The translations under genes and the position numbers were made by a program. A DNA stretch of 37,720 nt, taken from positions 1 through 37,720 of the forward strand of contig CBDUSL010000003.1 of assembly GCA_965370265.1 (NCBI GenBank), read 5' to 3'. The stretch is from an uncultured bacterium. Its GTDB lineage: Bacteria > Patescibacteriota > Patescibacteriia > JAXHNJ01. Of the stretch, positions 233 to 13,766 are shown one piece after another (positions within the stretch are counted from its first letter, which is position 1; the number at the start of each line of letters is the position of its first letter). The notes beneath the pieces are model-generated. The model did not search any database, was not told the DNA's origin, and saw only the letters and a list, made by a program, of their open reading frames with translations.

Positions 233-286
233 ATATAATTGGTTTGGATTATTTCCATTATAACAAAAATAAGGTATAATTTCAAT

Positions 287-1471
287 ATGAATAAAGAAGA
301 GAAAATTAAAAAGGTGCTTAGACGAGGAGTGGCTGAGCTTATCAGCGAAAAGAATATTAGGAATAAATTATCCTCGGGTAAGAAATTAAGAGTCAAACTA
401 GGCATCGATGCCACGGGTTATGATCTGCATATTGGTCACGCCGTTCCTCTAAGAAAGCTAAAGGCTTTTCAGGACCTTGGTCATCAGGTGGTGTTAATTA
501 TTGGTGATTATACCACGCGGATCGGTGATCCTTCTGGTTTGGACAAAAGCCGCCCCCAGTTATCTGAAAGTGAGGTTGAAAAACACGCTAAAGATTATGT
601 TGATCAGGCCTCTCTGATTTTAGATAAGGAAAAAACGGAAGTGAGATGGCAGAGTGAATGGTTTGAGGACTTTGATCTTCAAACGGTGATTGATTTAACT
701 TCCAAAGCAACCTTAGCTCAGGTTTTGTCTCACGAAACATTTAAAAACCGCCTGAAAAAAGGACTCCCTCTTTCTACCCATGAAGTTATTTATCCCTTTT
801 TGCAGGGTTATGATTCTGTAGCCGTAAAAGCTGATATTGAAATCGGAGGGATTGATCAAAAGTTTAACCTTCTAATGGGTCGGGAGATTCAAAGATCTTT
901 TAACCAGCCTTCACAGGATATTATGACCTTGAATTATTTAATGGGCTCGGACGGCCGGAAAATGAGCAAAACTTTTAATAATTATATTGCTCTTAAAGAC
1001 TCGCCAAAAGAAATGTATGGCAAAGTTATGTCAATTGCCGATGATTTAATTATTGATTATTTCACTTTAGCCACCGAAGTACCCTTGATTGAGATTGAAG
1101 AAATAAAAAAATCATTAAGCTCCGGTGATAACCCCAGAGACCACAAAGCCAGACTGGCTCGGGAAATAGTTATTCTTTATCATTCAAAAAAGGAAGCCGA
1201 AAAAGCTGAAAAAGAATTTGATAAAGTTTTTAAAAACAAAGAATTGCCCAGCGATATTCCTGTTTTCACCCCCACTAAATCTAAATTACCGATTATGGAT
1301 TTATTGGTTGGTTCAGGAATGACTGATAGCAAAAGCGAGGCACGGCGTTTGATTGAACAGGGAGGAGTTTCCATTAATGAAAAAAGAGTAGAAGACTCCA
1401 AAAAAGAAATAAGTTTTAAAAAAAACGATATTATAAAAGTTGGAAAAAGAAAGTTTTTAAAAATAAAATAA
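287..1471 (+). CDS. tyrS: Tyrosine--tRNA ligase
   Basis: HIGH (LHIGH), IGDPSG, GGIDQKFN, KMSK motifs and a C-terminal S4 domain (SKSEARRLIEQGGV). Start moved to ATG 287 (MNKEE), 6 nt after TATAAT. Confidence 0.98.
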   Translation: MNKEEKIKKVLRRGVAELISEKNIRNKLSSGKKLRVKLGIDATGYDLHIGHAVPLRKLKAFQDLGHQVVLIIGDYTTRIGDPSGLDKSRPQLSESEVEKHAKDYVDQASLILDKEKTEVRWQSEWFEDFDLQTVIDLTSKATLAQVLSHETFKNRLKKGLPLSTHEVIYPFLQGYDSVAVKADIEIGGIDQKFNLLMGREIQRSFNQPSQDIMTLNYLMGSDGRKMSKTFNNYIALKDSPKEMYGKVMSIADDLIIDYFTLATEVPLIEIEEIKKSLSSGDNPRDHKARLAREIVILYHSKKEAEKAEKEFDKVFKNKELPSDIPVFTPTKSKLPIMDLLVGSGMTDSKSEARRLIEQGGVSINEKRVEDSKKEISFKKNDIIKVGKRKFLKIK

Positions 1472-1482
1472 ACATAGATAAT

Positions 1483-1513
1483 AAAAACAAGCTGCTATTT
1501 TAGCTGTTTTTTT
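1483..1513 (+). terminator. Probable intrinsic terminator of tyrS
   Basis: AAAAACAAGCTG-CTATTT-TAGCTGTTTTTTT imperfect hairpin followed by a T run just after the stop codon. Confidence 0.55.
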
Positions 1514-1516
1514 AAT

Positions 1517-1555
1517 AAAAAAAACCAACGCACTTTGGAAAAGACGCGTTGAGGT
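1517..1555 (-). terminator. Probable intrinsic terminator of the glycogen operon
   Basis: Minus strand CAACGCG-T-CTTT-TCC-AAAG-TGCGTTG followed by GTTTTTTTT. Confidence 0.55.
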
Positions 1556-1712
1556 AATATTTTATTACCACCAGAGCAGGCTTTCCAGCCTGCGATGGAA
1601 GTATAAAAAGATTGGAAATGAAATATGAATGGAAATGCGTAGTCGAGGCTGGAAAACCTCGACTAATTTTCGGCAAGGCGTGGAAGTCTTGTCTACAAAT
1701 TTTATGGATAAT

Positions 1713-2660
1713 TTATTTCGCTCGGTAAAATTTAGCCGCCTCTTCCGGTGAAACGGAATTAGCAATCAAGCGGGAACCAAGCTCAAGTCCAGCCCAGACA
1801 TTTCTCCGCGGAGATATTCTTAGATAAAAATGTTCATCATTATAGTGAACAGCCTGATGGAGATAATAATTATAAGGCAGATTATGTTTGTGCAGTTTTT
1901 CCAAAAGTTTATCCAGGATTTTAGCCATGGATTTTATCTCTTTTTTTGTTAAAAGAGAAATATTATCAACATGACGCTTGGGGAAAATCCAAGCTTCATA
2001 ATTATAAGTTGAAGCATAGGGGGTAAAGCAGGAAACATTTTCGTCTTCCCAGACAAAGCGGGGGGTCTTTGGCGACTTGACGATTAAATCACAGTAATAA
2101 CAGGTGCCCATCTGAATTTTATATTCCTGGGCTCGGGTTAGCTTGTCCAAGATATGTGGAGGCAGGAAAGCAGTGGCAAAGACTTGCGAATGAGCGTGGG
2201 TGATAGAAGCGCCCGCTCGCCCGCCGTTATTTTTAAAAATCAGTAAATACTGCATTTTTTTATCTTGGGAGATGACATGGGTGCGCTTTTGATAAACTTC
2301 CAATATTTTTTCAATATGGCTAAGCGGCAGTTCAGCCATTTCTTTGTCGTGATCCGGGGTTTCAATAATTACCTCTTGTTGGCCGTAGGCTTTGGGATTA
2401 TCAGTGGAGACAATAGGAAAAATATTTTTTATCACTTTAATTTGCCATTTTTTTCCTTTTCCCACGGTTAAAATAGCTTTTACTTTATTAACTTTTTCAG
2501 GGCAAAAAACACAATCTTTTTTACTTATTGGTTTGGCACAACCTTCTTCTTTAAAATGATTAGGTCTTTTAGCCCGGCCTGGAGCGATAATAACCGCCCG
2601 ATCGTGGATATAATCCTGCCGGATTTCTGCCTGAAGTTTTTGGGTTTCCTTTTTTAACAT
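1713..2660 (-). CDS. galT: GalT-like HIT-family hexose-1-phosphate nucleotidyltransferase / ADP-glucose phosphorylase-like
   Basis: RAKRP, CVFCP, EVIIETPDH, FKNxGxxAGASxxHAHSQ (HxH active site), CYYC, GLELGS. Confidence 0.88.
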   Translation of the reverse strand: MLKKETQKLQAEIRQDYIHDRAVIIAPGRAKRPNHFKEEGCAKPISKKDCVFCPEKVNKVKAILTVGKGKKWQIKVIKNIFPIVSTDNPKAYGQQEVIIETPDHDKEMAELPLSHIEKILEVYQKRTHVISQDKKMQYLLIFKNNGGRAGASITHAHSQVFATAFLPPHILDKLTRAQEYKIQMGTCYYCDLIVKSPKTPRFVWEDENVSCFTPYASTYNYEAWIFPKRHVDNISLLTKKEIKSMAKILDKLLEKLHKHNLPYNYYLHQAVHYNDEHFYLRISPRRNVWAGLELGSRLIANSVSPEEAAKFYRAK

Positions 2661-2663
2661 TTA

Positions 2664-4142
2664 TTATGAGTTTAATAATTTTTGATAAAGTTTAATATAT
2701 TCTTGAGATGACTTGTCCCAGGAATAATCGCCGGACATCCCGTTTTTAATAATGTTCATCCATTCGCCTTTATTATGGTACATTTTGAGAGCTCTTTCAA
2801 TAGCCGCCAAAAAATCTTTACCGGTAAATTTTTCAAAACTGAAACCGGTGCCTTCTTTTGTTTCAGGATTGTATTCAGGAACCGTGTCTGCCAGACCGCC
2901 CGTCGCCCGGACAATAGGAATATTGCCGTAACGCATAGAAATCATCTGGCCCAAGCCGCAAGGCTCAAAACGTGAGGGCATAAGAAACATATCAGAACCG
3001 GCATATATTTTCTGGGCCAAAGTGGCATCAAAGGCCAGGGTGACGGAAATTTTATTCGGATATTTTTCACCTGATTCTTTCAACTCTTTTTCCAACTTAG
3101 GGTCGCCTGTTCCCAGAATTACCAACTGGAGATTTTCTTTTTCTAATTTAGGTAGTATTTCTACCAGTAAATCAATACCTTTTTGGTCAGCCAATCTTCC
3201 CACTAAGCCCAAAACTGGAATTTTTTCATTAACTTCCAGATTTGATATTTCCTGAAGGTGTTTTTTGTTTTCATTTTTAATTTCTATATTTTCTAAAGAA
3301 TATTTTTTGTAAATTTGGTTATCAACTTCAGGGTTAAAGCTTTCCAAATCAATACCATTCAAGATGCCGGAAATGTCTTTTTTTCGCTTTTTTAAATGTT
3401 TTTCCAAACCACAACCATATTCACGGGTTAAGATTTCTTTAGCATATTTTGGGCTGACCGTATTAAGCAGGTCTGCATCTTTGATCGCCTGTTCAAGATA
3501 TCTTATATTTTCATGGTCAAAGGGTATGAGATTGTGTTTCCGAGCATCTGTTTCGGAAATACCGAGACTTTCAAGGACTTCTTGGTAGTTATAATTACCC
3601 TGATAAGCGAGATTATGGATGGTTAACAGGGTTTTGACCTTGTTTAGTTTTGGTTTTTCCTCTTCCAGGTATTTTTCTAAAAATGGAATAATGCCGACAT
3701 GCCAGTCATGGCAGTGAATTACATCCGGCCAAAACGAAACGGGTTCAAATATTTCAAAAATACTGCGGGCAAAAAAAGTAAAACGGTGAAGTTCTTCAGC
3801 CGAACCGCCGGAAGAAGCGTCTGCCTCCACATAAACCCCGCCCTTGCCCAAATATTTTAAATTATCAATAAAATAAACAGGCACTTCGCTCATAGGCAGG
3901 TTAGCTTGCCAAATGTCTATTAATTCTTCTTTTCCCGCGAAAGGAACTTTTATTTTTTCGGCGATTTTCGTAAGGCCGTATTCTTTTTCGTCAATAACAC
4001 CGTATTTAGGAATAACTATTCTGACATCTATTCCTAGTTTTTTAAGACTTTTGGGCAGGGCCCCAATAACATCACCCAGCCCCCCCACTTTGGCCATAGG
4101 GGTAAGCTCAGCGGCTGTAAATAAAACCTTTATTTCTGGCAT
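2664..4142 (-). CDS. glgA: Glycogen/starch synthase (GT5), copy 2
   Basis: AKVGGLGDV, IHCHDWH, TIHNLAYQG, GILNGID, RLADQKG, MPSRFEPCGLGQ, TGGLADTV. Confidence 0.95.
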   Translation of the reverse strand: MPEIKVLFTAAELTPMAKVGGLGDVIGALPKSLKKLGIDVRIVIPKYGVIDEKEYGLTKIAEKIKVPFAGKEELIDIWQANLPMSEVPVYFIDNLKYLGKGGVYVEADASSGGSAEELHRFTFFARSIFEIFEPVSFWPDVIHCHDWHVGIIPFLEKYLEEEKPKLNKVKTLLTIHNLAYQGNYNYQEVLESLGISETDARKHNLIPFDHENIRYLEQAIKDADLLNTVSPKYAKEILTREYGCGLEKHLKKRKKDISGILNGIDLESFNPEVDNQIYKKYSLENIEIKNENKKHLQEISNLEVNEKIPVLGLVGRLADQKGIDLLVEILPKLEKENLQLVILGTGDPKLEKELKESGEKYPNKISVTLAFDATLAQKIYAGSDMFLMPSRFEPCGLGQMISMRYGNIPIVRATGGLADTVPEYNPETKEGTGFSFEKFTGKDFLAAIERALKMYHNKGEWMNIIKNGMSGDYSWDKSSQEYIKLYQKLLNS

Positions 4143-6154
4143 AATAAATTTTCCTTAATAATATTATTTAATATTTTAACATACTTATGGCGGTTTTTAT
4201 CTTTGGCTCCCATTAAAGTGGCTGTGATGGTCCAGATATCTAAAGCTGCTCTTACCTGGGCTAATTTAACGTTTTTTTCCACTTGCCTGCCTAAAGATTT
4301 TTTAACGGTTTTAAGATAATTGTTGAGAAAAATATTTTGCAGCTGATTAATTTTTTTATGGCTGATTACTCCTTTCAGCATTATTCTTAGATGAACTAAA
4401 AAATTAGCCACGTCAAAAGAGGGGAAGAAAAGGGAAGAGAGAGTAAAGTCGATAAGAGCAATTTCGTTTTTCGGTGTGACAATTATATTAGAAGCTTGTA
4501 AATCATTGTGGGAAAGAACTTTTTTTGACCCTTTAAATTTTATGGAGGCGGTTTTTAAATATTCCCTGGTATAAGAGGATATGACTTTATAGTTAGCCGG
4601 GTCGTACTTTTTTATTTTAGCTCTTACTTCTTTAAAATAGGAAACCTCTTTTATTTTTGTGGTTCTGACTTTTGGCAAAGGCAGATTATGAAGGGTGGCC
4701 AAAGAAATGGCGGTTTTTCGGAGTAAAATTTTAAATAGATTACTCTTAAAGCTTATTTCCCTAAGTCTTTTTCCCGGAGTTTCTTCATAAAGAATATAGG
4801 GAATGCGGGCGAAGTAATGAAGAGGGCGGGGAGAGATAAGATTTTTTTTGTTATTTTCAAAAATAAATTTCATTAACTTGTACGTATCCGCATCGATTGT
4901 ATTTCCACGGACAATTTTTTCTATCTGTTTGTTTTTTTTATTCACCATGGTTAACTTTGTTCTGGTAAGGAAACTTGTTTCCGAGAGAGCCTCCGGATGC
5001 GATATTTTTAAAGAGATAATATGCCTTTCTTCGGGAAAAAGGCGCCGTAGGCTTTTATTAAAAAGCTTTAACATCAGCTTTTCGTCAGTAAAAATTTCTT
5101 TTAAAGAACCAGTTTTTTTATCACTGATTATTTGTTTATCAATTCTAATTTTAAGTTTCCGACACAATTTTTTGGCCTGTTCCATGTTTTTAATAACCGC
5201 CGGCCGGACCACATTTGGATCGCGGGTAGAAACGATATAAGCAATTATTTGCATAATCCACCAAAGTTCATGGATCATTAATCGCCTCTGAATTTTTTTC
5301 AATTTTTGCCCGGTTGCTTTTAGGTAATTATCCAAAAATATTTTTCGGGCATTTCTGATTACTCTGGAATTGGCTGAAAAAAACCAAGTTAGCATATTAA
5401 GCTGGGCCAGATAATTGGCGACATCACTTAAGGGGTCATAGGCGTAGCTTCTTCCCCAGTCAATAATTGCGACTTTATCTTTGTTGATAATGACATTATT
5501 AGGATTGGGGTCTCCGTGAGTAAGGATGAAAGTATTTTTACGATTGAATACCTCATTCTTAAAAAGAGGGAAAATCTGCTCCAAAATAGTGGCGCCGATT
5601 GCATAAACATCGGGAAAATTATTTTTATAGTCGTCTATAAAATAATTTATTTCATTTTTTATCTCCGGCAGTTTTTTCTTGATCCCCTTTTTAATTTTCA
5701 TATTATGAAGCCGGGCCAGCCAGAGGGCTGATTGTTTGACCATATATTTTACATTACCTCTGTTTTTTACAATATAATTCGTCAGAGGTATTCCTGGATA
5801 ATCTTCATAAAGAACCAAGTTTAGGGATTTGTAGTAACCCAGAGGAATGGGCACCTGAAACGGGCCAGAAGCAAAATTATGCTGGAAAAGAATTTTCTTT
5901 GTTTTGTCGGCGACCATGCTTTCCCGCCAGGTATCTTTTGAGGGAACATTTCCACGTATTACTTTTTTAATGATTTTACCCCTTGGAGTTTCTATCGCTA
6001 AATCGTATTTTAGGGCTTTTTTAAAGGTCATTCCGCCCACATCGGTAACTCGTAATTCTTTAAGAATAGAACCTTTGGGAAATTTTTCCTTAATTATCCG
6101 GTTGAAAAATTTACCCATTATCTTTTTATTTTTAGCGTCTTCAAAAGCTTTCAT
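4130..6154 (-). CDS. Tandem two-domain APH/choline-kinase-like phosphotransferase
   Basis: Two homologous halves: LARLH...THGDPNPNNV...IIDWG...DVANYL and LATLH...SHNDLQASNI...LIDFT...DVANFL. TAATG stop-start coupling to the upstream GH57. Confidence 0.8.
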   Translation of the reverse strand: MKAFEDAKNKKIMGKFFNRIIKEKFPKGSILKELRVTDVGGMTFKKALKYDLAIETPRGKIIKKVIRGNVPSKDTWRESMVADKTKKILFQHNFASGPFQVPIPLGYYKSLNLVLYEDYPGIPLTNYIVKNRGNVKYMVKQSALWLARLHNMKIKKGIKKKLPEIKNEINYFIDDYKNNFPDVYAIGATILEQIFPLFKNEVFNRKNTFILTHGDPNPNNVIINKDKVAIIDWGRSYAYDPLSDVANYLAQLNMLTWFFSANSRVIRNARKIFLDNYLKATGQKLKKIQRRLMIHELWWIMQIIAYIVSTRDPNVVRPAVIKNMEQAKKLCRKLKIRIDKQIISDKKTGSLKEIFTDEKLMLKLFNKSLRRLFPEERHIISLKISHPEALSETSFLTRTKLTMVNKKNKQIEKIVRGNTIDADTYKLMKFIFENNKKNLISPRPLHYFARIPYILYEETPGKRLREISFKSNLFKILLRKTAISLATLHNLPLPKVRTTKIKEVSYFKEVRAKIKKYDPANYKVISSYTREYLKTASIKFKGSKKVLSHNDLQASNIIVTPKNEIALIDFTLSSLFFPSFDVANFLVHLRIMLKGVISHKKINQLQNIFLNNYLKTVKKSLGRQVEKNVKLAQVRAALDIWTITATLMGAKDKNRHKYVKILNNIIKENLLCQK

Positions 6155-7512
6155 TATGTTTTTTTATAAGTTTTTAATTCTTTAATGCGGTCTCTTAGCT
6201 GAGCCGCTCTTTCAAATTCTTCTCTCTTCACCATTAATTTTATCTCTTTTTTTAAATTATTGATAATTTTATTAATCTCCTCTTCCGGTAATTCTGGAAT
6301 AGCTTCATCCGTAAGTTGTCTCACTTCTTCATCTTCTTGTTTACTGAGAGTTTCAACTGTTCCATTTCTTTGCCATTCAAAACCGGTAAACACTATATTT
6401 TGATAAAGTTCTCTCGCTTCTTGTTTTGTTTGTTCGGACACTTTTTTTAATAATAAAATAACATCTTTTAGTTCTTTTGCCCCCGCTTCAATCATTTCTA
6501 AACTCCACCAGGGTTTAGCGGAAGCCCACCAGAACTGGTCAGAATGAACGGCCCGATCAAGGCCCGTCCGGGCCTTTTTATAGCCTTTGTCGCTTGGGCC
6601 GCATTTTTTTAAAGTATTGACTGCCAAATGAAAAAGTTTCCACTGCATTTCGTGAATCTTATTGCCCGGATCTTCCCAACGGGAAAAAGGGGCATTTTTT
6701 TCCAGGTCTTTTTCCATTAATGCCCAAGTGGAAGGAAGGGGTTTGACTTTTTCTCTTTCTTTAAACATTTTGTCAAGATCAGACACTAATACAGTTTCTA
6801 ATTTTTTTGATTCATATATTTCAAAAAGCAGTTTTTCCATGCCTGGTCTATGATGGCCGAATGTTTCTCCATCCATGGCTGTGAGGAGAAAGTCCTTTTT
6901 ATCAAGCCGGTCCCCCAGGCTCTCAATAAGAAGGTTGCCGGTGCCAAGTTGGCCGGAGAGTATTTTATAACTCATTCTTCTTTCTCGGAAATATATTTTT
7001 AAATTTTTTATACCTTCAATTTCGTAAATTTTTGAATAGTTAACTTTCCCCTTTTTAGTCGGAAAGGATAATTCATCAACTATAATCCACTCATAACCCA
7101 TTTCACTCACAATTTCTGCCACTTTATCGGAATAGCCCATTTCCGGCGGAAAAAAACCGCGGGGGTTGTAAAGGCCGCCGAAATATTTTCGGTGAGCTTT
7201 ATTATTCAGCTCAATTTGACGAACTATCTCTTCTTTTGGCAATTTAGGAAGAAGGGGGTGATACTTGGCGCTAGCCGTGAGTTCAATTTGGCCTCTTTTA
7301 AGAAGCATTTTAATGTCATCGATGATATCAGTAAGGCCATTTTCCTCAAAAAGTTCTACCAAGATGGCGTTAATATTAAGAGTTACTTTTGCGTGAGGAT
7401 GCTTTTTTAATCCGTCGGTTATTTTTCGGTACGATTCATCCGCGATTTTTTTTACCCAGTAAGATTTTTGGGTGGGGGGTTGATAGATGTGTAAAAAATT
7501 TGCCCAAATCAT
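6154..7512 (-). CDS. Glycoside hydrolase family 57 protein with C-terminal UvrB/UvrC (UVR) motif
   Basis: HIYQP, GQIEL..SAKYHPLLP, GFFPPEMG (nucleophile Glu), MDGETFGHH (acid/base Asp), SDQFWW; tail LKKEIKLMVKREEFERAAQLRDRIKEL. Confidence 0.9.
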   Translation of the reverse strand: MIWANFLHIYQPPTQKSYWVKKIADESYRKITDGLKKHPHAKVTLNINAILVELFEENGLTDIIDDIKMLLKRGQIELTASAKYHPLLPKLPKEEIVRQIELNNKAHRKYFGGLYNPRGFFPPEMGYSDKVAEIVSEMGYEWIIVDELSFPTKKGKVNYSKIYEIEGIKNLKIYFRERRMSYKILSGQLGTGNLLIESLGDRLDKKDFLLTAMDGETFGHHRPGMEKLLFEIYESKKLETVLVSDLDKMFKEREKVKPLPSTWALMEKDLEKNAPFSRWEDPGNKIHEMQWKLFHLAVNTLKKCGPSDKGYKKARTGLDRAVHSDQFWWASAKPWWSLEMIEAGAKELKDVILLLKKVSEQTKQEARELYQNIVFTGFEWQRNGTVETLSKQEDEEVRQLTDEAIPELPEEEINKIINNLKKEIKLMVKREEFERAAQLRDRIKELKTYKKT

Positions 7513-7515
7513 AAA

Positions 7516-8754
7516 TTATTTTTTAATTATTCTTTCTCCGCCGAGATGCGGTATAATGCCAATGCGGGCGAGATATTCTTTTACTATTTTTTCCGCCTTT
7601 CCGGAATTTTGCCAGCTATTAGCGAGATTAATAATATTTTGTAGAATCGTATTTGCTTTTTCTTTTTCCTGGACGGAAATAGATTTTAAAGGGACAAGAA
7701 CACCAAAAAGTTCTTGAGCTTCTCTGATGATTATTAGTTCGTGCCACCAAGGTCTTAGGGAAGCCCACCAAAACTGGTCAGAGGCCAAGGCTTTATCGAG
7801 AAGTTTTTCCGCCTCTGAAATACCTTTGTCTTTTTTTTCTTTAGCTCGGGCGATAAGTTCTAAAATAATTTTAGTTAATTCCCATTGTTTTTGGTGAATC
7901 TCGTTTTTAGGATTTTGCCAAAGGAAATAAGGAATTTTTTCTTCAAAATCTTCTGGTTCAGAAGACCAGCTCGAAGCCAAAGGAGAAATTTCCTCCCATT
8001 TATCATACCTTTCAATAAGTTCTGAAAAATTCACAGTTTCTACTTCAGACCTTTTAATCAGTTTTTCCCAGAAGATATCAATTTTCGGCCGGTGATGGCC
8101 CAAATTCTCTCCGTCCATAGCGGTAATAAGATAAGTGTCACTTCGTCCCTCATTTTTTATTTTTTCAAAAAATTCGTCAGGATTTTCAGGATCAGCTTCA
8201 AAAACAAAGTAATCGCTGATAATACGATTGCGAAATATTATCCGAATATCGGTATTTTTTATTTTATAGCCTTTATTAAAAGTTATTTCGCCAATTTTTT
8301 GGTGATGGGCGATTTCATCAAGAACAACCCATTCCACCTTAAGTTTTTTAAGAAGGGGGGTTAAATTTGTGCCCCAGGCCATTTCCGGCGGGAAAAACCC
8401 TTTCGGTTGATATGATTTACCTAAATACTTTTTATTAACTTTTTCGTTAAGCTTGATTTGCCGCCAGATAATTTCCTTATTATATAGAGGGAGGATAAGG
8501 TGGTATTTAGCCGAGTGAGTAAATTCGATTTGGCCTTTTTCAGCCAGGTATTTGATGTCTTCAATAACATCTTTAAAACTGTGTTCAATAAGTTGTTCGG
8601 TTAAAGAGGCATTAATATTTAGGGTGATTTTAACTTTTGGATTTCTTTTTAAAATATTTAAAAAAGGACGATAGCTTTCTTTAACGACTTTCCGGATTAT
8701 TTTTTTATCCCAATTTGGGGGCTGGTAAATGTGAAAAAAATTGGCCCAGATCAT
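7516..8754 (-). CDS. Glycoside hydrolase family 57 protein
   Basis: HIYQP, GQIEF, GFFPPEMA, MDGENLGHH, SDQFWW; paralogue of the adjacent gene. Confidence 0.9.
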   Translation of the reverse strand: MIWANFFHIYQPPNWDKKIIRKVVKESYRPFLNILKRNPKVKITLNINASLTEQLIEHSFKDVIEDIKYLAEKGQIEFTHSAKYHLILPLYNKEIIWRQIKLNEKVNKKYLGKSYQPKGFFPPEMAWGTNLTPLLKKLKVEWVVLDEIAHHQKIGEITFNKGYKIKNTDIRIIFRNRIISDYFVFEADPENPDEFFEKIKNEGRSDTYLITAMDGENLGHHRPKIDIFWEKLIKRSEVETVNFSELIERYDKWEEISPLASSWSSEPEDFEEKIPYFLWQNPKNEIHQKQWELTKIILELIARAKEKKDKGISEAEKLLDKALASDQFWWASLRPWWHELIIIREAQELFGVLVPLKSISVQEKEKANTILQNIINLANSWQNSGKAEKIVKEYLARIGIIPHLGGERIIKK

Positions 8755-10214
8755 TTATTAGTATTTTTATGTTTTTTAATCGCAAGATGGTATAAATCCA
8801 GATACTTTTGAGCGGGCAATTCCCATGAATATGACATACGCATAGTTTGCCAGGTAAGATGTTCCCAGGTTTTGGGGTGGTTATAGTTTTCCAAAGCCCG
8901 GACGATGGCCATTAAAAGGTCTTCTTTGGTATAGGTTGAAAATTTAAAACCATTGCCTTTTTCTGTTTTTGGACTGAAGTTAGTAATAGTATCAGAAAGA
9001 CCCCCTGTTTCGTGGACGATAGGAATGGACCCGTAACGCATGCTAATCATTTGAGAAATGCCACAAGGTTCATAACGGGAAGGCATTAAGAATATATCAG
9101 AGCCGGCGTAAACCCTTGAGGCCATTTTTTCGGTAAAAGGAGAATAAATTGCAATCTTTTTTGGGTTATTTCTCGCTAATTTTTTAAACGATTTTATATA
9201 ACCCTTATCACCTGAGCCGACAACAACGAATTGAAGATTAAGTTTAAGGAGAAAATCCATTAATTGAAGAATCAAGTCAAAGCCTTTTTGTTCGGTTAAT
9301 CGGTGAACCAGGCCGATGATTGGAATATCGGCTTTGACTTCCAGGCCCACTTCTTTCTGGAGAGAGATTTTATTTTTCTTTTTTCGATCCAGTGAATTCC
9401 AGTCATAATTATAATGGATATTTTTATCAAAGGCGGGGTTATAAACCGTGTAATCAATCCCGTTAATGATGCCATAAATGTCTTTTTTTCTTTCGTTTAA
9501 TATTTTATCAAGCCCCTGGGCGAATTTTGGAGTTAATATTTCTAAGGCATATCTTTCGCTAACCGTGTTAATAATACTGGAGTTTATTAGGGCTCTTTTT
9601 GCGAAATTTATATATTTTATTTTTTCTTTAGAGCTGATATTTGGCAAACCAAGACCTCTATCAATATCTTTTTTCTCTACTTTCCACCAATCCTGTTGAA
9701 ATTGAAAAGGCAGATTATGGATAGTGTAAAGGGTGGCTATTTTGCCGTAAAAATCATCAGTTTTCTTCTTGGCAAGATAATTAGAAATGAGACCGGAGGG
9801 CCAGTCATGGCAGTGAATAATATCCGGCTTAAGGTTTATTTTTTCCAGCATTTTAATGACGGCATGATTAAAAACTAAGAAACGGAGATTGTCATCTGGA
9901 TAACCATAGAGTTTGCTCCGTCCGAATAACTGGCGGTTATAAATTAAATAAAGAGGCGTTTCCGGCGAAAAATCAGTTCGGAAAAAAATAACCGGATAAT
10001 CTTTTTCATTGATGGTAATATTGTCTTTAGCAATTTCTTTTAATTTAAGTCTCTGATTTTTTATAAATTCATAAAAAGGCATTACCAAACTAACATCTTG
10101 CTCCATGTTGATGAGGGCTTTTGGCAAAGCATTAGAAACATCACCCAGACCGCCTGTCTTGGCGTAGGGGGATATCTCCGGTGAAACTATTAAAATTTTT
10201 ATTTTTTTATTCAT
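8751..10214 (-). CDS. glgA: Glycogen/starch synthase (GT5), copy 1
   Basis: AKTGGLGDV, IHCHDW, TIHNL, GIINGID, RLTEQKG, MPSRYEPCGISQ, TGGLSDT. Confidence 0.95.
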   Translation of the reverse strand: MNKKIKILIVSPEISPYAKTGGLGDVSNALPKALINMEQDVSLVMPFYEFIKNQRLKLKEIAKDNITINEKDYPVIFFRTDFSPETPLYLIYNRQLFGRSKLYGYPDDNLRFLVFNHAVIKMLEKINLKPDIIHCHDWPSGLISNYLAKKKTDDFYGKIATLYTIHNLPFQFQQDWWKVEKKDIDRGLGLPNISSKEKIKYINFAKRALINSSIINTVSERYALEILTPKFAQGLDKILNERKKDIYGIINGIDYTVYNPAFDKNIHYNYDWNSLDRKKKNKISLQKEVGLEVKADIPIIGLVHRLTEQKGFDLILQLMDFLLKLNLQFVVVGSGDKGYIKSFKKLARNNPKKIAIYSPFTEKMASRVYAGSDIFLMPSRYEPCGISQMISMRYGSIPIVHETGGLSDTITNFSPKTEKGNGFKFSTYTKEDLLMAIVRALENYNHPKTWEHLTWQTMRMSYSWELPAQKYLDLYHLAIKKHKNTNK

Positions 10215-11287
10215 TTTAAATATCCAAGATGATGACTGGCGATGATGAACATAGCGTGGCTCCAGGCCAGGGGTGAAATACTCTGGCGGAAATCTTTAAA
10301 AACTTGCTCCGGAATATATTTATCCGTTCTTTCTAAAACCCAATTATAATAGGCTTCAGCTTTGCGCTTATTGCCGGCTAGATGCCAGTAGATAGCCAGC
10401 CAAAAATTAAGAATCGGCCAGGCCCCCCCTCCTTCCCAGGCTGTACCCTCGGAATCAAAGTAATCAAACTGGAAACGATGAACGCCGCCGCCAGTCACTA
10501 TATTCTCCTCAATTTTCTGAACGGTTTTTTTTATTCTTTCGTCTTCGGCATCCACTATTTCGAAAGGCCAAACCAAGCCAAGCAGGGAAGCGTCAATGTT
10601 TTTATCGCAAATTTTTCCACAGTTGCGCAAAAAATGGCCGTCTTTTTTACTGTAAGCTTCATCTATTTCGGAAAGCATCTCCATGGCTACTTTTTTCCAA
10701 AGTTTGTTCTGAATAATCTCGTTAGCGAGAAGAAGCCCTTGGGCGCAAGCGGCCAGAGAATAAGTAAAATTATTTTCCATAATGGAAGAGGTTTTGCGAA
10801 ATCCATCTTCCCAAAGATCAAGAGTATTGGGCAAGAAATAGGTTTTATTCCAGGCGGCACAAAGGCCATCAGCCAGCCGGATAATCAATTCTTTGTGTTT
10901 TAGGGCACTGGTTAGATCGTCTTTATAAATAAAATGAATCATCCAAAGAACGGTTCCCATTTGATCGGGTTCAAATTGGGCGCCCATAGAGGCAATGCGG
11001 CCGTTAGTTGAATAATTAGCGTAAAGAAGTTTGTCTTTTTTAAAATCTTCAGGTTTGGTTCTGAGCCACTCTAAAAATTTTTCTTGAATGGGTAGATCAA
11101 GGTATTTAGCGGCGATACAAACAAAAGAAGCGTCTCTCGGCCAGACAAACCGGTAATTTGAGGCTTCACGAGGATAATAAAGCTTATCACTGTTGGCGGC
11201 GACAATCGCCCCGTTTTCTAAAACGACATCGGCAAGAACTTCTCTTGATGTTTTTATTAATTCTTTAATTTTTTTATTCAAAGCCAT
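10211..11287 (-). CDS. GH15-like glucoamylase, catalytic (alpha/alpha)6 domain only
   Basis: YRFVWPRDAS, DLWED, DASLLGL, GGVHRF..D, WPI..WL, PEQ, SPLAWSHAMF. Confidence 0.85.
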   Translation of the reverse strand: MALNKKIKELIKTSREVLADVVLENGAIVAANSDKLYYPREASNYRFVWPRDASFVCIAAKYLDLPIQEKFLEWLRTKPEDFKKDKLLYANYSTNGRIASMGAQFEPDQMGTVLWMIHFIYKDDLTSALKHKELIIRLADGLCAAWNKTYFLPNTLDLWEDGFRKTSSIMENNFTYSLAACAQGLLLANEIIQNKLWKKVAMEMLSEIDEAYSKKDGHFLRNCGKICDKNIDASLLGLVWPFEIVDAEDERIKKTVQKIEENIVTGGGVHRFQFDYFDSEGTAWEGGGAWPILNFWLAIYWHLAGNKRKAEAYYNWVLERTDKYIPEQVFKDFRQSISPLAWSHAMFIIASHHLGYLK

Positions 11288-11289
11288 AA

Positions 11290-11766
11290 TTATTTAAATT
11301 CTTTTGTCCCAAAACAGCAAAAAGCGACCGCCAAAGCATCAGCCGCGTGGTCCGGCTTGGGAATTTTTTTTAGTTTTAAAATACATTTTAGCATTTTTTG
11401 AACCTGTTCTTTATCTGCTTTGCCATATCCGGTGATTGCTTGTTTAATTTGAAGAGGAGTGTATTCGTAAAGAGGGATATTTTTTTCTGCGGCACAAAGG
11501 CAGGTAATACCCAGGGCCTGGCCGACGATTAGAGCCGAACTGACATTCTTGGCGAAAAAAAGCTGCTCCACCGCAATTTTGTCCGGATTATACTTCTTAA
11601 TAATTTTAGAGAGCGCTTGATGAATTTTTAAAATTCTTTTTTCTTTTTTTTCTTCTGAAGAAGTTTCAATACAGCCGTAGGCAATTGATTCTATTTCTTT
11701 TTTTTCGAATTCAATAATGGCGTAACCGGTATTAGCAAGCCCAGGATCAATGCCAAGAATAATCAT
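11290..11766 (-). CDS. ruvC: Holliday junction resolvase RuvC
   Basis: ILGIDPG..TGY, AVEQLFF, EYTPLQIK..ITGYGKADK, DHAADALAVA. Confidence 0.97.
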   Translation of the reverse strand: MIILGIDPGLANTGYAIIEFEKKEIESIAYGCIETSSEEKKEKRILKIHQALSKIIKKYNPDKIAVEQLFFAKNVSSALIVGQALGITCLCAAEKNIPLYEYTPLQIKQAITGYGKADKEQVQKMLKCILKLKKIPKPDHAADALAVAFCCFGTKEFK

Positions 11767-11767
11767 T

Positions 11768-12487
11768 TTATTCCTTTAAATTACTAAAAATATCAGTTGT
11801 ATCTTCATAGTCTTCGAGTTTTTCCAAAAGGTTTTCAATCCGTTTTATTTTTTTAGGATCATTTACTTCAAGGGGATTTTTAGGCAGTGTTTCTATCTCG
11901 GCGCAGTCAATCGGATATTTTTTTTCCAAACCCTCTTTTATTTTTTGAAGATTTTCTTTTTCGGTGATGATACTAACGCCCTCATCGTCTTCCGCAACAT
12001 CTTCTGCTCCAATTTCAATCGCATTTAATATTAATTCTTCCCGTTTTTCTTTTTCCGCTGTGATTCTTATTGTTCCCTTTTCTTCAAAAAGCCAGCGCAC
12101 AGAATTAGTTTCCCCCAACCTCCCCCCGGATTTCGAAAGAATATTTTTTATATCCGAGACAGTCCGGTTTTTATTATCGGTGATAGCCTTAACAATAATG
12201 GCCACTCCGCCAGGGCCGTAAATTTCGTAAAAGACCTCTTCCATTTTCTTTCCTTCAATTTCTCCTGTCCCTTTATTTATGGCTCTTTCAACATTAATCA
12301 AAGGCATGTTAGCTATTTTTGCCCTCTCCATAGCCAGGCGGAGGGTGAAGTTAGTATCAGGATCACTTCCTTTTTCTCTGGCGGCAAGAGTGATAGTTTT
12401 TGAGAGCTTAGAAAAAACCCGGCCCCTTTTCTGATCAGTGGCCCCCTTTTGTCTTTTAATTCGAGACCACTTTGAATGGCCGGACAT
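11768..12487 (-). CDS. yebC: YebC/PmpR family protein
   Basis: MSGHSKW, YEIYGPGGVA, TDNKNRT. Confidence 0.97.
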   Translation of the reverse strand: MSGHSKWSRIKRQKGATDQKRGRVFSKLSKTITLAAREKGSDPDTNFTLRLAMERAKIANMPLINVERAINKGTGEIEGKKMEEVFYEIYGPGGVAIIVKAITDNKNRTVSDIKNILSKSGGRLGETNSVRWLFEEKGTIRITAEKEKREELILNAIEIGAEDVAEDDEGVSIITEKENLQKIKEGLEKKYPIDCAEIETLPKNPLEVNDPKKIKRIENLLEKLEDYEDTTDIFSNLKE

Positions 12488-12527
12488 AACAAAAAAATAA
12501 ATAAAAAATAATGAGATTATTATCCCA

Positions 12528-12556
12528 ACTATAACATTTTTAAGCCTTTTCGTAAA
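12528..12556 (-). promoter_or_regulatory. sigma70-type promoter of the yebC-ruvC-glycogen operon
   Basis: Minus strand TTTACG-N17-TATAGT with extended TG. Confidence 0.55.
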
Positions 12557-12624
12557 GATAAGAACGGCTCTAATTTGCTAAATTTATATTATTTTGATAA
12601 AGTGAAAGCACTAAAATAAAAACG

Positions 12625-13695
12625 ATGAAAAGAAGTTTAGAAAATTTACAAAAAATAAAAAGTTATAATACCGGAAAGATTATTGAATCAATAAAATCCC
12701 TGTCTGAGCAGGGTTTTCAATCGTTAACTGAAGTTTCTAAAATAAAATTTCCTAAAAACTATTATCAAGTTGATAAGGTTGTTGTGGCGGGGATGGGGGG
12801 TTCAAGTATTGGTACCGACCTTATCCGAAAAACCCTTGCAGATAAAATAAGGGTTTTTATTGAAATAAATAATAATTATAATTTACCTAATTTTGCCGAT
12901 AAAAAAACACTGATAATTTCTTCTTCCTACTCTGGTAATACTGAAGAGGTTATTTCTGCAACTAAAGAAGCATTAAAGAAAAAACTTCCTCTCATTATAA
13001 TTACTACCGGCGGAAAACTTGCCCGGCTAGCGAAAAATAAAAAAATTCCGGCTTATATTTTTGAGCCATTTTATAATCCCTCAAATCAGCCAAGAATGGG
13101 ATTAGGTTATTCCATTGCCGGACAAATAGAAATTTTAAGGAAATTAAAATTAATTGATATTTCCAAGAAGGAAATAGTAGCCGCTCTTACTTTTCTAAAT
13201 AAATCGGTGAAAGAATTCTCCAAAGAAAGACCTTTAGCAAAAAACCGGGCCAAAAAAACGGCCCAAAATATTTTTGGGAAAACCCCCGTTTTTTTTACCA
13301 GTAATTATTTTTCCGGCAATGCCCATATTCTCTCAAACCAAATAAATGAAAATTCAAAAAATTTCTCTTCGTACTACTCTTTTCCTGAATTAAATCACCA
13401 TCTTCTTGAAGGCTTGACTCATCCTGAAAAAATGAAAAATTTTATTTTTATTTCTTTAGAATCCGAATTAGATAAACCGTCTATAAAAAAACGCCAGAAA
13501 GTTACCAAAAAAATACTACAAAAGAAAAAACTAAAATATCTTACCCTCAAACTTTCCGGTTCTGATATTTTAAGCCAATCATTTTGGCTTCTCGGATTTG
13601 GCAGTTATTTAAGTTTTTACTTGGCAGTTTTAAATAATGAAAAACCGCACTTAATACCCTGGGTTGATTTATTAAAAAAAGAACTGGCAAAATAA
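12625..13695 (+). CDS. Bifunctional phosphoglucose/phosphomannose isomerase (SIS)
   Basis: GMGGS, SSYSGNTEE, TTGGKL, QPR, NENSK, PELNHH. Confidence 0.92.
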   Translation: MKRSLENLQKIKSYNTGKIIESIKSLSEQGFQSLTEVSKIKFPKNYYQVDKVVVAGMGGSSIGTDLIRKTLADKIRVFIEINNNYNLPNFADKKTLIISSSYSGNTEEVISATKEALKKKLPLIIITTGGKLARLAKNKKIPAYIFEPFYNPSNQPRMGLGYSIAGQIEILRKLKLIDISKKEIVAALTFLNKSVKEFSKERPLAKNRAKKTAQNIFGKTPVFFTSNYFSGNAHILSNQINENSKNFSSYYSFPELNHHLLEGLTHPEKMKNFIFISLESELDKPSIKKRQKVTKKILQKKKLKYLTLKLSGSDILSQSFWLLGFGSYLSFYLAVLNNEKPHLIPWVDLLKKELAK

Positions 13696-13698
13696 TAT

Positions 13699-13737: not shown

Positions 13738-13766
13738 TATAGAAAATATAATGTTATAATAAGGTT

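Follow-up and report, generated by a model that had tools for sequence, protein, structure and literature searches.

How could a bacterium build and use an alpha-glucan store without the textbook glycogen enzymes? This question is raised by seven co-directional minus-strand open reading frames (ORFs), which in the ORF list of the window, a stretch of DNA of 37,720 nucleotides analysed as a whole, filled positions 1713-11287 (Table 1). An earlier note on this DNA had described a tightly packed glycogen operon in a probable CPR bacterium, with gaps of 3 nt or less, or overlaps, between the genes. The bounds proved exact, with successive junctions of +3, -13, -1, +3, -4 and -4 nt, and the organism was borne out as a Patescibacteria bacterium with a genome of 0.79 Mb (assembly 94.09% complete, 87 contigs).

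Table 1 Positions of the cluster genes and of neighbouring features in the window.
Feature	Positions	Strand	Length (aa)	Profile matches
tyrS (convergent boundary, downstream)	239-1471	+		tRNA-synt_1b 4.1e-70
GalT-like class-I HIT nucleotidyltransferase	1713-2660	-	315	PF01087 4.9e-19; HIT match
GlgA1, GT5 glycogen/starch synthase	2664-4142	-	492	TIGR02095 539.1 bits
Tandem APH/choline-kinase-fold kinase	4130-6154	-	674	Choline_kinase 7.6e-21; APH 2.4e-20
Kinase C-domain	4130-5131	-		
Kinase N-domain	5132-6154	-		
GH57a	6154-7512	-	452	PF03065 1e-38; UVR 3.7e-8
GH57b, GH57a paralogue without UVR tail	7516-8754	-	412	PF03065 3.3e-34
GlgA2, second GT5 synthase	8751-10214	-	487	TIGR02095 506.8 bits
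GH15, glucoamylase-family, catalytic domain only	10211-11287	-	358	PF00723 5.7e-12
ruvC (cluster boundary, upstream)	11290-11766	-		Pfam RuvC 2.3e-54
yebC (cluster boundary, upstream)	11768-12487	-		TACO1/YebC match
Bifunctional phosphoglucose/phosphomannose isomerase (PGI/PMI)	12625-13695	+		PF10432 6.6e-31; NF006425 4.9e-76
GalU, UTP-glucose-1-phosphate uridylyltransferase	26057-26923	-		TIGR01099 342.1 bits (cut-off 326.8)
PfkB (sugar-kinase-like)	30928-31908			
PFK (sugar-kinase-like)	32005-33225			

Genome-wide inventory of glycogen enzymes

The absence of GlgC, GlgB, GlgX and GlgP, noted before for the operon, held genome-wide and in relatives. Neither PF00128 (GH13) nor PF00343 (GT35) was found in the 94.09%-complete assembly, and in a genome-wide profile search GlgC was not among the five NTP_transferases. 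GlgC above the cut-off was found in none of 401 sampled genomes of the class, seven of which had a GlgC-like gene at E<=1e-30, and GH13 and GT35 were each found in 0 of 30 near-complete relatives. The only recognisable glucose NDP-glucose pyrophosphorylase in the genome was GalU, which was confirmed at the place given before and belongs to a conserved neighbourhood, a GalU-like gene being present in 28 of the 30 near-complete relatives, as a rule on the contig of galT and 15-30 kb away from it. The PGI/PMI gene was likewise confirmed, and the genome also had one PGM/PMM gene. The ROK kinase that had been placed in the pathway was not found in the window, where PfkB and PFK were the sugar-kinase-like genes, and the sole PF00480 match of the genome was partial and located on another contig (C17).

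Enzymes encoded in the cluster

Both GlgA proteins, which were 39% identical to each other, lay well above the TIGR02095 cut-off of 328.45 bits. The translations confirmed that the catalytic motifs were intact in both GT5 copies (KVGGLGDV and SRFEPCG in GlgA1, KTGGLGDV and SRYEPCG in GlgA2) and in both GH57 copies (HIYQP, GQIE, PPEM, DGE(T/N) and SDQFWW). E. coli glycogen synthase was the best solved relative of GlgA1 (2QZS/3D1J, ~275 bits, full length) and of GlgA2 (244.7 bits), and both proteins were closest over their full length to the ADP-glucose-type synthases of E. coli, Agrobacterium and plants, which use ADP-glucose. The archaeal type from P. abyssi reached 88 bits at most and aligned with the C-terminal half only; the two synthases are of bacterial/plant type and not of the archaeal type.

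The GalT-like HIT enzyme barely exceeded the TIGR00209 (galT) cut-off (103.8 vs 102.1 bits). Its translation contained the motifs HAHSQ and CVFC, and H155, H157 and Q159 (HxHxQ) were invariant in 42 orthologues. The closest solved relative was At5g18200 of Arabidopsis (1Z84/2H39; 1.2e-42, 147 bits, residues 10-313), an ADP-glucose phosphorylase, which has the HxHxQ motif and the CxxC zinc site in common with the HIT enzyme, at limited sequence identity. A Pyrobaculum protein deposited as a true GalT came second (118 bits), and E. coli GalT scored 70 bits (1.2e-18), placing the enzyme much nearer to At5g18200 than to E. coli or human GalT. We regard it as a candidate NDP-glucose:phosphate nucleotidyltransferase resembling ADP-glucose phosphorylase; which nucleotide it uses, ADP or UDP, and which way the reaction runs are inferred. 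The earlier note had this enzyme interconvert NDP-glucose fed by GalU. The closeness to At5g18200 agrees with action on NDP-glucose, but a supply of ADP-glucose from GalU is mechanistically impossible: in the ping-pong reaction of GalT-type enzymes the NMP stays on the histidine and only the phosphate-bearing partner is exchanged, so UDP-glucose from GalU could not be converted to ADP-glucose. No GHMP galactokinase was found in the genome, which leaves the HIT enzyme without a Leloir partner.

GH57a, the universal GH57 of the cluster, carried a C-terminal UVR helical hairpin (~6157-6285; UVR match at residues 415-447), and its AF2 model (pLDDT 90.7) placed helices at 410-429 and 433-451; E124 and D214 were invariant in 44 sequences. 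Its closest fold was the Aquifex GH57 amylopullulanase 9JLR (Z 34.1, rmsd 2.4 A, 326 aligned), the S. marinus enzyme gave Z 32.8, and the T. thermophilus branching enzyme 1UFA stood behind the amylopullulanases (Z 30.1, rmsd 4.2 A). The Aquifex aeolicus enzyme (PMC12106739), with 477 aa, is similar in size to GH57a. Like the amylopullulanases, GH57a ends conserved region 5 with two tryptophans; it differs from 9JLR in its UVR hairpin and shares only 20% identity with it, and its position-23 residue is Thr, as in the alpha-amylase group. GH57b was 38% identical to GH57a. In conserved-region fingerprinting the branching-enzyme fingerprint fitted neither protein, so that, of the earlier proposal that the GH57s remodel or branch the glucan, the branching part did not stand, and branching is unaccounted for; in appearance the GH57s are nearer to amylopullulanases than to branching enzymes. 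For GH15, the TIGR01577 match covered only model positions 272-609 of 616, and the closest solved relative was the single-domain GH15 isomaltose glucohydrolase 5Z3A (2.3e-10).

The kinase matched the Choline_kinase and APH profiles in two stretches each. Its halves were 25% identical, one with HGDPNPNN and IDW and the other with HNDLQASN and IDF, and both kept HxDxxxxN and the metal-binding Asp. Fold matches of the C-domain model (AF2, pLDDT 93.3) formed a plateau at Z 20-23.6 over small-molecule kinases that singled out no substrate class; mycobacterial maltokinase 4U94 was among them (Z 20.5, rmsd 4.2 A, 305 aligned). Signal-peptide-like N-termini were absent from the cluster translations, read by eye, which suggests that the products of the cluster are intracellular.

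Synteny and gene fusions across Patescibacteria

The synteny check across Patescibacteria showed that the alpha-glucan cluster was conserved and widespread, with the order pgi, yebC-ruvC-(gh15)-glgA2-(gh57b)-gh57a-kinase-glgA1-galT, tyrS in 19 of 20 kinase-anchored loci. The ruvC and yebC genes bordered the cluster on its upstream side in most of the fetched loci, and in many loci PGI/PMI kept its position as the divergent neighbour and tyrS adjoined galT. Of 40 GalT-anchored loci sampled from 39 families, 25 had GT5 genes beside galT. Among these 25, the kinase was detected with our queries in 18 and missing from 7, a second GH57 was present in 12, and GH15 in 6. Two GlgA proteins, a single GH57 and the HIT enzyme form the core of the cluster, and the kinase, GH15 and the second GH57 count as accessory, so the tandem kinase listed before is present here without being a constant part of the operon. 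The glgA1-galT order was conserved, the GlgA1 copy always being located just upstream of the HIT gene. In at least 13 fetched loci, a gene for a PHP phosphoesterase separated the kinase from glgA1; the closest relatives of these proteins were 3',5'-nucleoside bisphosphate phosphatase and RNase AM. No such PHP protein was found in the window's genome, whose sole PF02811 match was DnaE.

The HIT gene was also found apart from the cluster. A GalT-like gene was present in 190 of the 401 genomes of the class, and a HIT gene in 180 of 401 genomes of the phylum sample (a count that takes in one unpublished genome, G548, on which no conclusion here depends), mostly not beside GT5; beyond the class, GT5 was seen within the 1.5-kb flanks of just 1 of 25 HIT loci. 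In 7 of the 40 sampled families the HIT gene persisted next to ruvC without glucan genes at the locus, so the self-contained pathway supposed before does not strictly hold around this enzyme. A search of five of these genomes for GT5 and GH57 gave no real copy of either in three (G179, G060 and G174), a GT5 elsewhere in one, and a short synthase and a GH57 elsewhere in one. In the tree, the solitary HIT genes were interspersed among the clustered ones. In some relatives, the kinase and the HIT enzyme occupied the same slot together with GT4-type transferases.

Natural fusions linked the cluster products further. Among 25 database proteins of at least 454 aa with this HIT domain, counted as protein clusters, 17 contained PF08323 (GlgA) and four contained PF03065 (GH57). 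GlgA-HIT fusions were encoded as single, stop-free ORFs in two genomes (G478, 827 aa; G768, 803 aa) and kept both KxGGL and HxHxQ. The HIT domain was fused to a GT4-type transferase in G228, GH57 to the kinase in G329 (741 aa), and the kinase to PHP in G044 (664 aa).

Proposed pathway and alternatives

The cluster is very probably an alpha-glucan storage operon that operates without the textbook enzymes. A partnership between the HIT enzyme and GlgA1 via NDP-glucose, glucose-1-phosphate and phosphate is somewhat probable. Acting like the Arabidopsis enzyme, the HIT enzyme would interconvert NDP-glucose plus phosphate with glucose-1-phosphate plus NDP through a nucleotidyl-histidine intermediate. 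NDP released by GlgA1 would be recharged by the HIT enzyme with glucose-1-phosphate, so that chain growth would cost no NTP, and in reverse the pair could release glucose-1-phosphate; coupling in both directions would thus make up for the lack of GlgC and possibly for that of GlgP. GlgA2 would serve as a second synthase, elongating or priming; GH57a, with its amylopullulanase-like fold, GH57b and GH15 would trim or mobilise the polymer into oligosaccharides and glucose; and the kinase may phosphorylate a sugar that GH57a produces or consumes. The best explanation of the whole, which we hold with moderate confidence, is that the cluster is this lineage's form of a conserved Patescibacteria operon for an intracellular, glycogen-like alpha-1,4-glucan store in which HIT-GlgA1 coupling takes the place of GlgC, and possibly of GlgP.

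Synthesis might instead be fed by UDP-glucose made by GalU and used by both GlgAs, with the HIT enzyme a mere neighbour that exchanges hexose-1-phosphate and UDP-hexose in Leloir fashion. GalU is at hand in the window and, at a conserved position, in most relatives, and would feed the GlgAs if they accept UDP-glucose; the HIT enzyme just passes the galT cut-off, has a deposited GalT as its second-closest solved relative, and persists in genomes that lack glucan genes. We consider this route rather unlikely, since a galactose enzyme would leave the recurrent HIT-GlgA and HIT-GH57 fusions unexplained, the genome lacks a galactokinase, both GlgAs are closest to ADP-glucose-type synthases, and At5g18200 is by a wide margin a nearer relative of the HIT enzyme than the GalT of E. 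coli or of humans. More doubtful is a glucose salvage in which the kinase would make glucose-1-phosphate and ADP from glucose and ATP, and the HIT enzyme would turn them into ADP-glucose. Both products of such a kinase would serve the HIT enzyme as substrates, so glucose derived from GH15/GH57 or from the host could be re-stored without PGM or GlgC. Two C1-kinases, MTR kinase and maltokinase, were among the fold matches, APH-fold anomeric sugar kinases pair with nucleotidyltransferases in known salvage routes (for example NahK with GalT2), and the slot shared with GT4-type transferases in some relatives points the same way. The fold plateau gives no specificity, the kinase is accessory, and with one PGM/PMM gene in the genome glucose-1-phosphate need not come from the kinase; moreover, we know of no natural APH-fold glucose 1-kinase.

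Two further readings start from the kinase and its partners. As a maltokinase analogue, it could form alpha-maltose-1-phosphate or another oligosaccharide-1-phosphate, which GH57a, a retaining enzyme, would transfer onto the glucan in a GlgE-like route. The constant adjacency of GH57a and the kinase (with a 1-nt overlap here), their fusion in G329, the maltokinase among the fold matches and the lack of GH13, hence of GlgE, fit such a route. We judge it very unlikely, given that maltokinase ties with many unrelated small-molecule kinases, that the seven GT5-bearing loci without the kinase retain GH57 and both GlgAs, that the nearest folds of GH57a are hydrolytic amylopullulanases, and that two full GT5 synthases already supply elongation. 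Least probable is a reversible phosphorylation of the glucan, in which the kinase would add phosphate to the polymer or oligosaccharides and the PHP phosphoesterase of relatives would strip it; by analogy with starch, a poorly branched and poorly soluble glucan might thereby be opened to GH57 and GH15. No branching-type GH57 or GH13 was recognised, and the placement of PHP between kinase and glgA1, the kinase-PHP fusion and the kinase-GH57 fusion are consistent with this. Against it, the window's genome has PF02811 only in DnaE, the PHP proteins are related to nucleotide enzymes rather than to glucan phosphatases, and to our knowledge there is no APH-fold polysaccharide kinase.

Relation to known glycogen systems

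With E. coli glgBXCAP the window shares GT5 synthases, whose nearest solved relative is E. coli glycogen synthase. It differs in having two of them, with GH57 and GH15 replacing GH13 and with the HIT enzyme and the kinase in addition; GlgC, GH13 (GlgB, GlgX) and GT35 (GlgP) are lacking from its genome and from 30 near-complete relatives. The actinobacterial GlgE pathway (TreS-Mak-GlgE) resembles the cluster in placing an APH-fold sugar kinase among alpha-glucan genes, but the kinase here is not specifically maltokinase-like, and the genome has no GH13 and therefore no GlgE or TreS. The HIT gene is coupled to GlgA in the window and fused to it elsewhere, whereas we know of no link between At5g18200 and a synthase gene in the plant.

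The glg cluster described for Sulfolobus acidocaldarius comprises glgX, gaa/GH15, glgC, amyA and glgA (PMC8158581), and thus also joins a synthase to a glucoamylase-family gene, together with an alpha-amylase gene. Sulfolobus has GlgC, GlgX and GlgP according to that account, whereas the window's genome is without GlgC, GH13 and GT35; the synthases of the window are of bacterial/plant type, and the N-terminal domain is missing from its GH15.

Within Patescibacteria, a glycogen operon was noted in one sentence for the WWE3 genome RAAC2 (Kantor et al. 2013, mBio, PMC3812714), a cluster of this kind from a different lineage; the window's cluster has the tandem kinase, the second GH57 and GH15 in addition. 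The paper offers no mechanism and is silent on the missing GlgC, GlgB and GlgP, on the kinase, on the resemblance to ADP-glucose phosphorylase and on the fusions. The HIT, GH57-kinase and kinase-PHP fusions, the resemblance of the HIT enzyme to ADP-glucose phosphorylase and the closeness of both GlgAs to ADP-glucose-using synthases add evidence beyond this earlier published mention of the operon.

Operon organization and genomic context

The ORF listing of the minus strand returned seven genes whose coordinates match exactly those that an earlier note had given for a glucan operon, and direct reading of the translations confirmed that their catalytic motifs are intact. The successive junctions, in gene order, are +3, -13, -1, +3, -4, and -4 nt. 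GlgA1 and GlgA2 are 39% identical, GH57a and GH57b 38%, and the two halves of the tandem kinase 25%, which indicates old duplications. The ruvC and yebC genes lie upstream on the same strand, and the operon is flanked by a divergent PGI/PMI gene and a convergent tyrS gene. No signal-peptide-like N-terminus was seen in the translations of the seven proteins; on this absence and the presence of two synthases, an extracellular starch-degrading locus was rejected. Over window positions 1-14000, neither promoter-like sites (48 versus 39.8 ± 5.8 in shuffles) nor terminator-like sites (20 versus 15.3 ± 3.9) were in excess.

Table. Genes of the operon and of its neighborhood in the window.
Feature	Position	Strand	Evidence or remark
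HIT enzyme, GalT-like (galT)	1713-2660	minus	PF01087 4.9e-19; TIGR00209 103.8 bits (cut-off 102.1)
GlgA1	2664-4142	minus	TIGR02095 'ADP-glucose type' 539.1 bits (cut-off 328.45)
Tandem kinase, 674 aa	4130-6154	minus	two APH/choline-kinase stretches (Pfam)
GH57a	6154-7512	minus	PF03065 1e-38; UVR motif at residues 415-447
GH57b	7516-8754	minus	PF03065 3.3e-34
GlgA2	8751-10214	minus	TIGR02095 506.8 bits (cut-off 328.45)
GH15, 358 aa	10211-11287	minus	catalytic part only of the 616-position oligosaccharide-amylase model
Five large genes in a row	13767-21902		weak PMT_2-like, EpsG-like, and DUF2079 matches, two genes without any; probably membrane glycosyltransferases or polymerases
Three T4SS_pilin-domain genes	22012-22759 and 23234-24721		two of about 117 aa, one of 495 aa
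Sugar-type ABC solute-binding protein	24669-26060		follows the T4SS_pilin genes, overlaps galU
Further sugar-activation genes	30928-35268		PfkB-family kinase, phosphofructokinase, short sugar-1-phosphate nucleotidyltransferase; also a 333-aa protein with a weak DUF6206 match only

The textbook glycogen enzymes are missing

Profile searches of the whole source genome (788 kb, 87 contigs, 94% complete) found no GlgC, GH13, or GT35 enzyme, in agreement with the earlier claim that the operon has no GlgC, GlgB, GlgX, or GlgP. GH13 (PF00128) and GT35 glycogen phosphorylase (PF00343) had zero matches in this genome and in all 30 near-complete relatives of the same class. These relatives were picked for a strong GalT-like match and include several single-contig genomes; at least two of them (G052 and G060) carry no glucan genes next to the GalT-like gene. 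The five NTP_transferases of the source genome are RmlA-like, ManC-like, GalU, and two short ones, with no GlgC among them. None of the 401 genomes sampled from the class exceeded the GlgC cut-off (TIGR02091). Seven of the 401 have a full-length gene resembling GlgC (E ≤ 1e-30; 190-309 bits, thus under the cut-off), and all seven genomes (G018, G049, G120, G205, G229, G269, and G307) also have a GalT-like gene. The absence of GlgC, GH13, and GT35 is not an artefact of the draft assembly. One PGM/PMM gene is present in the source genome. Its sole ROK match is partial and located on another contig, so the ROK kinase previously assigned to the pathway is not in the window.

The HIT enzyme is related to ADP-glucose phosphorylase

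The HIT enzyme carries the HxHxQ motif of class-I GalT proteins (HAHSQ, residues 155-159) and the zinc-binding cysteines (CVFC, residues 50-53). H155, H157, and Q159 do not vary among 42 orthologues, some of them solitary or from outside the class, and C50 and C53 are nearly invariant. The closest solved relative is At5g18200, the Arabidopsis ADP-glucose phosphorylase (PDB 1Z84/2H39; 1.2e-42, 147 bits, residues 10-313), compared with 118 bits for a Pyrobaculum protein deposited as GalT (6K5Z) and 70 bits for E. coli GalT (1HXP). With regard to a possible UDP-glucose:galactose-1-phosphate exchange within a Leloir pathway, the cut-off of the galT model TIGR00209 is barely exceeded, and a GHMP galactokinase, the Leloir partner GalK, was not found in the source genome. 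The function of the ADP-glucose phosphorylase family has been unclear ever since the plant enzyme was described; the equilibrium of the plant enzyme lies several-fold towards phosphorolysis, and its Km for ADP-glucose is micromolar.

According to the accessible part of a 2026 preprint, At5g18200 is an ADP-glucose phosphorylase that has the fold of class-I GalT and works by a ping-pong mechanism via a nucleotidyl-histidine. Such an enzyme retains the NMP and exchanges only the phosphate-bearing partner, so the UDP-glucose made by GalU cannot become ADP-glucose through it. On this mechanism, the interconversion of GalU-fed NDP-glucose that the earlier note had ascribed to the GalT-like enzyme is not supported.

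E. coli glycogen synthase was the best solved match of both GlgA1 and GlgA2. Over their full length, both are nearest to the synthases of E. coli, Agrobacterium, and plants and distant from the archaeal type of P. abyssi. The E. coli, Agrobacterium, and plant synthases use ADP-glucose.

Natural fusions join the synthase and the HIT enzyme

In two genomes from different families, one uninterrupted ORF was observed to encode a complete GlgA1-like synthase and, downstream of it, the HIT enzyme (G478, 827 aa, L141:2421-4904; G768, 803 aa, L142:1517-3928), with both KxGGL and HxHxQ retained. When a collection of 5.8 billion proteins was searched with the HIT part as the query, 25 proteins of at least 454 aa were returned, 17 with a GT5 domain, four with GH57, and four with neither; the fusions, 17 GT5-HIT and four GH57-HIT, are counted as clusters at 90% identity (P0003-P0024). 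Two of the long proteins, one from WWE3 and one from a Patescibacteria MAG, are named 'glycogen/starch synthase' by NCBI. Such fusions join enzymes of adjacent steps, and the natural GlgA-HIT fusions are the decisive new observation of this analysis.

Other fusions were found to connect a GT4-type transferase with the HIT enzyme (G228), GH57 with an APH kinase (741 aa; G329, L090:11763-13988), and an APH kinase with a PHP phosphoesterase (664 aa; G044, L082:5426-7420). A 529-aa RuvC-GalT open frame without a stop in G695 (L144:2127-3716), which may be a real fusion or reflect a lost stop codon, was not counted.

Conservation of the cluster and solitary HIT genes

Relatives of the kinase were found in 88 of the 401 class genomes. 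Nineteen of 20 regions around the best kinase matches had the order pgi / yebC-ruvC-(gh15)-glgA2-(gh57b)-gh57a-kinase-glgA1-galT / tyrS. Because this sample had been selected via the kinase, the HIT gene, found in 190 of the 401 class genomes, was taken as the anchor for a second sample. In the 40 loci of this sample, from 39 families, GT5 genes adjoin galT in 25, galT comes immediately after ruvC with no glucan genes at the locus in seven, and GT4-type transferases, some with APH-like kinases, fill the slot instead in four; the remaining four were uninformative. Of the 25 GT5-bearing loci, 18 had a detected kinase, 12 a second GH57 gene, seven a PHP phosphoesterase, and six GH15. The smallest versions consist of glgA2-gh57-glgA1-galT (e.g., L084 and L105), which sets the invariant core at a pair of synthases, a single GH57, and the HIT enzyme; the tandem kinase, GH57b, and GH15 of the window are accessory.

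Variants of the cluster were also observed. Three Patescibacteria loci (L061, L062, and L063) represent a second, more divergent type with a GalT-like gene, a short GT5/GT4-like synthase (about 405 aa), a 398-aa GH57, and small ORFs; in L061, the one locus covered by a Pfam search for it, a GDE_C-type amylo-alpha-1,6-glucosidase is also encoded. A polysaccharide pyruvyl transferase replaces glgA1 in G329 (L090:13992-15011), and a radical SAM/SPASM gene lies between two GH57 genes in G296 (L052:12135-13421).

The HIT gene was found in 180 of the 401 genomes sampled across the phylum (including one unpublished genome, G548, on which no claim rests), and at loci outside the class, GT5 lay inside the short flanks in only 1 of 25. 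A search for GT5 and GH57 in five genomes with galT directly after ruvC gave neither in three, one of them closed, a true GT5 elsewhere in one, and a short synthase and GH57 elsewhere in one. A quick tree built from 87 HIT proteins scattered the solitary sequences among those from clusters, with 11 changes for 12 rows, which is no better than with shuffled labels. In this tree, the solitary genes resemble orthologues left behind after the cluster had been lost repeatedly. As the HIT gene is retained without glucan genes and GT5 is rare beside it outside the class, the HIT enzyme must have a further function; judging by the GT4-HIT fusion and the slots rich in GT4, it may supply other glycosyltransferases likewise.

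Both GH57 copies lack the branching-enzyme fingerprint

The five conserved regions of GH57, with the catalytic Glu in region 3 and Asp in region 4, were read in both GH57a and GH57b, and the catalytic pair (E124 and D214) is strictly conserved across 44 GH57 sequences of such clusters. The accessible part of PMC6037648 gives the fingerprint of GH57 branching enzymes as Leu at logo position 23, Trp at 12, and Phe plus a non-aromatic residue at 35-36, with a length of about 520-546 aa. At position 23, GH57a has Thr, as do alpha-amylases in that source, and GH57b has Asn; both have Phe at position 12, where most groups have Trp or another aromatic residue, and Trp-Trp at 35-36, as in amylopullulanases. 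GH57a (452 aa) and GH57b (412 aa) are also about 100 aa below branching enzymes in length. The AF2 model of GH57a (pLDDT 90.7) was nearest to the Aquifex GH57 amylopullulanase (Z 34.1, rmsd 2.4 Å, 326 aligned), followed by the Staphylothermus GH57 amylopullulanase (Z 32.8), the T. thermophilus branching enzyme (1UFA; Z 30.1, rmsd 4.2 Å), and a 4-alpha-glucanotransferase (Z 29.9). The branching role proposed earlier for the GH57 enzymes finds no support in the residues of both copies or in the fold of GH57a, which is nearer to amylopullulanases than to 1UFA. Nothing in this cluster identifies a branching enzyme, and a common fold does not prove function.

The C-terminus of GH57a (about residues 410-451; window 6157-6285) forms a UvrB/UvrC-type UVR helical hairpin that is conserved in orthologues, a putative docking motif. 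GH15 aligns to positions 272-609 of 616 in TIGR01577 and represents the catalytic domain alone; the N-terminal beta-sandwich of GH15 glucoamylases and glucodextranases is absent from it, and its nearest solved relative is a single-domain isomaltose glucohydrolase (2.3e-10).

The kinase and the PHP phosphoesterase

Both halves of the tandem kinase retain HxDxxxxN and the metal-binding Asp. The model of the C-domain (pLDDT 93.3) has a bilobal APH/choline-kinase fold with Z up to 23.6. Its matches formed a plateau at Z 20-23.6 that comprised homoserine kinase II, choline kinases, MTR kinase, maltokinase, and glucosamine kinase (Foldseek, VIA), and maltokinase 4U94 (Z 20.5) fell inside this plateau of unrelated kinases. 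The PDB sequence search returned choline kinases only, and weakly (E about 0.003), and a word-index search with the N-domain returned only two proteins. Across families, the kinases encoded between gh57a and glgA1 belong to at least three paralogous types. An alignment of the full tandem kinase with single-domain kinases split the N-like singles over both halves, and a separate alignment, A2, was used instead. In A2, a subgroup (L072, L077, L088, L094, L100, L109, and L043:10560-11555) carries HQEPYASH in place of HGDxxxxN, with the catalytic Asp changed to Glu and Asn to His, and may consist of pseudokinases or of enzymes with altered chemistry.

In many families, a PHP phosphoesterase gene separates glgA1 from the kinase gene (L053:7542-8429, L100:12669-13541, and 11 other loci); no PHP phosphoesterase of the cluster type was found in the source genome. 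These proteins are nearest to 3',5'-nucleoside-bisphosphate phosphatase, RNase AM, and cyclic-phosphate diesterase.

The flat fold plateau allows no substrate to be assigned to the kinase, and the fusions with GH57 and with the PHP phosphoesterase tie it to the substrate or product of GH57a. An anomeric glucose or maltose kinase supplying the HIT enzyme, a partner of GH57 in an analogue of maltokinase plus GlgE, and a kinase phosphorylating the glucan itself are each put forward here with low confidence.

A possible route for glucan synthesis and mobilization

The ordinary explanation for sugar supply is that GalU makes UDP-glucose for the synthases. The window encodes GalU, as do 28 of the 30 relatives, usually 15-30 kb from galT, and if the synthases accepted UDP-glucose, a special supplier would be unnecessary. 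The GlgAs are nearest to synthases that use ADP-glucose, GlgC is missing, and a homologue of ADP-glucose phosphorylase is translationally coupled, or in other genomes fused, to one of the synthases; most simply, the NDP would be recharged by the HIT enzyme. A complex prediction for GlgA1 and the HIT enzyme, run without controls, scored 0.00 and weighs neither for nor against binding.

With recharging by the HIT enzyme, the NDP released by GlgA1 would be charged with glucose-1-phosphate and phosphate would be freed, giving the net reaction glucose-1-phosphate + glucan(n) -> glucan(n+1) + phosphate. The reverse run of the two enzymes would free glucose-1-phosphate, which would also account for the missing GT35. 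If the kinetics of the plant enzyme hold here, the direction would be set by the ratio of glucose-1-phosphate to phosphate and by the pull of the synthase. A bolder and, in our judgement, rather doubtful proposal is that GlgA1 acts together with the HIT enzyme as a 'split alpha-glucan phosphorylase', and that the GH57a-kinase(-PHP) module performs a second phosphorylation, not described to date, of the glucan or its oligosaccharides. A catalytic NDP would then shuttle between the two active sites, allowing polymerization at no NTP cost; the same couple in reverse would mobilize the store, and it would take the place of both GlgC and GlgP across a large share of the Patescibacteria.

Discussion

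The window shares a GT5 ADP-glucose-type synthase with the classical GlgC/GlgA/GlgB/GlgP pathway but not GlgC, GH13, or GT35. A glycogen operon was noted in a single sentence in the accessible part of Kantor et al. 2013 (PMC3812714). HIT enzymes, CPR, and Patescibacteria are not mentioned in the accessible part of a 2024 Chem Rev review of prokaryotic alpha-glucan enzymes. No mechanistic treatment of the cluster was found in the literature searched, in which other CPR papers cite glycogen genes generally. The existence of the operon is thus already in print. Published work is not known to explain its logic: GlgC, GH13, and GT35 are absent, and a homologue of ADP-glucose phosphorylase is coupled, and sometimes fused, to the synthase, alongside accessory kinases. 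Overall, the earlier note was right in its observation of the operon and only partly right in its interpretation.

Glycogen metabolism is held to need an NTP-consuming pyrophosphorylase for building and a GT35 phosphorylase for draining. A radiation of ultra-small, energy-poor, host-dependent bacteria has kept two synthases and neither of these enzymes; the HIT enzyme is kept instead, and evolution has repeatedly fused it to the synthase. All parts are small, soluble, expressible, and assayable proteins, and with the GlgA-HIT fusions the central hypothesis is directly testable using few recombinant proteins. If the GlgA1-HIT pair does cycle NDP, these bacteria would have a cheaper and reversible form of sugar storage that explains carbon buffering between host contacts, and the ADP-glucose phosphorylase family would gain a physiological role.
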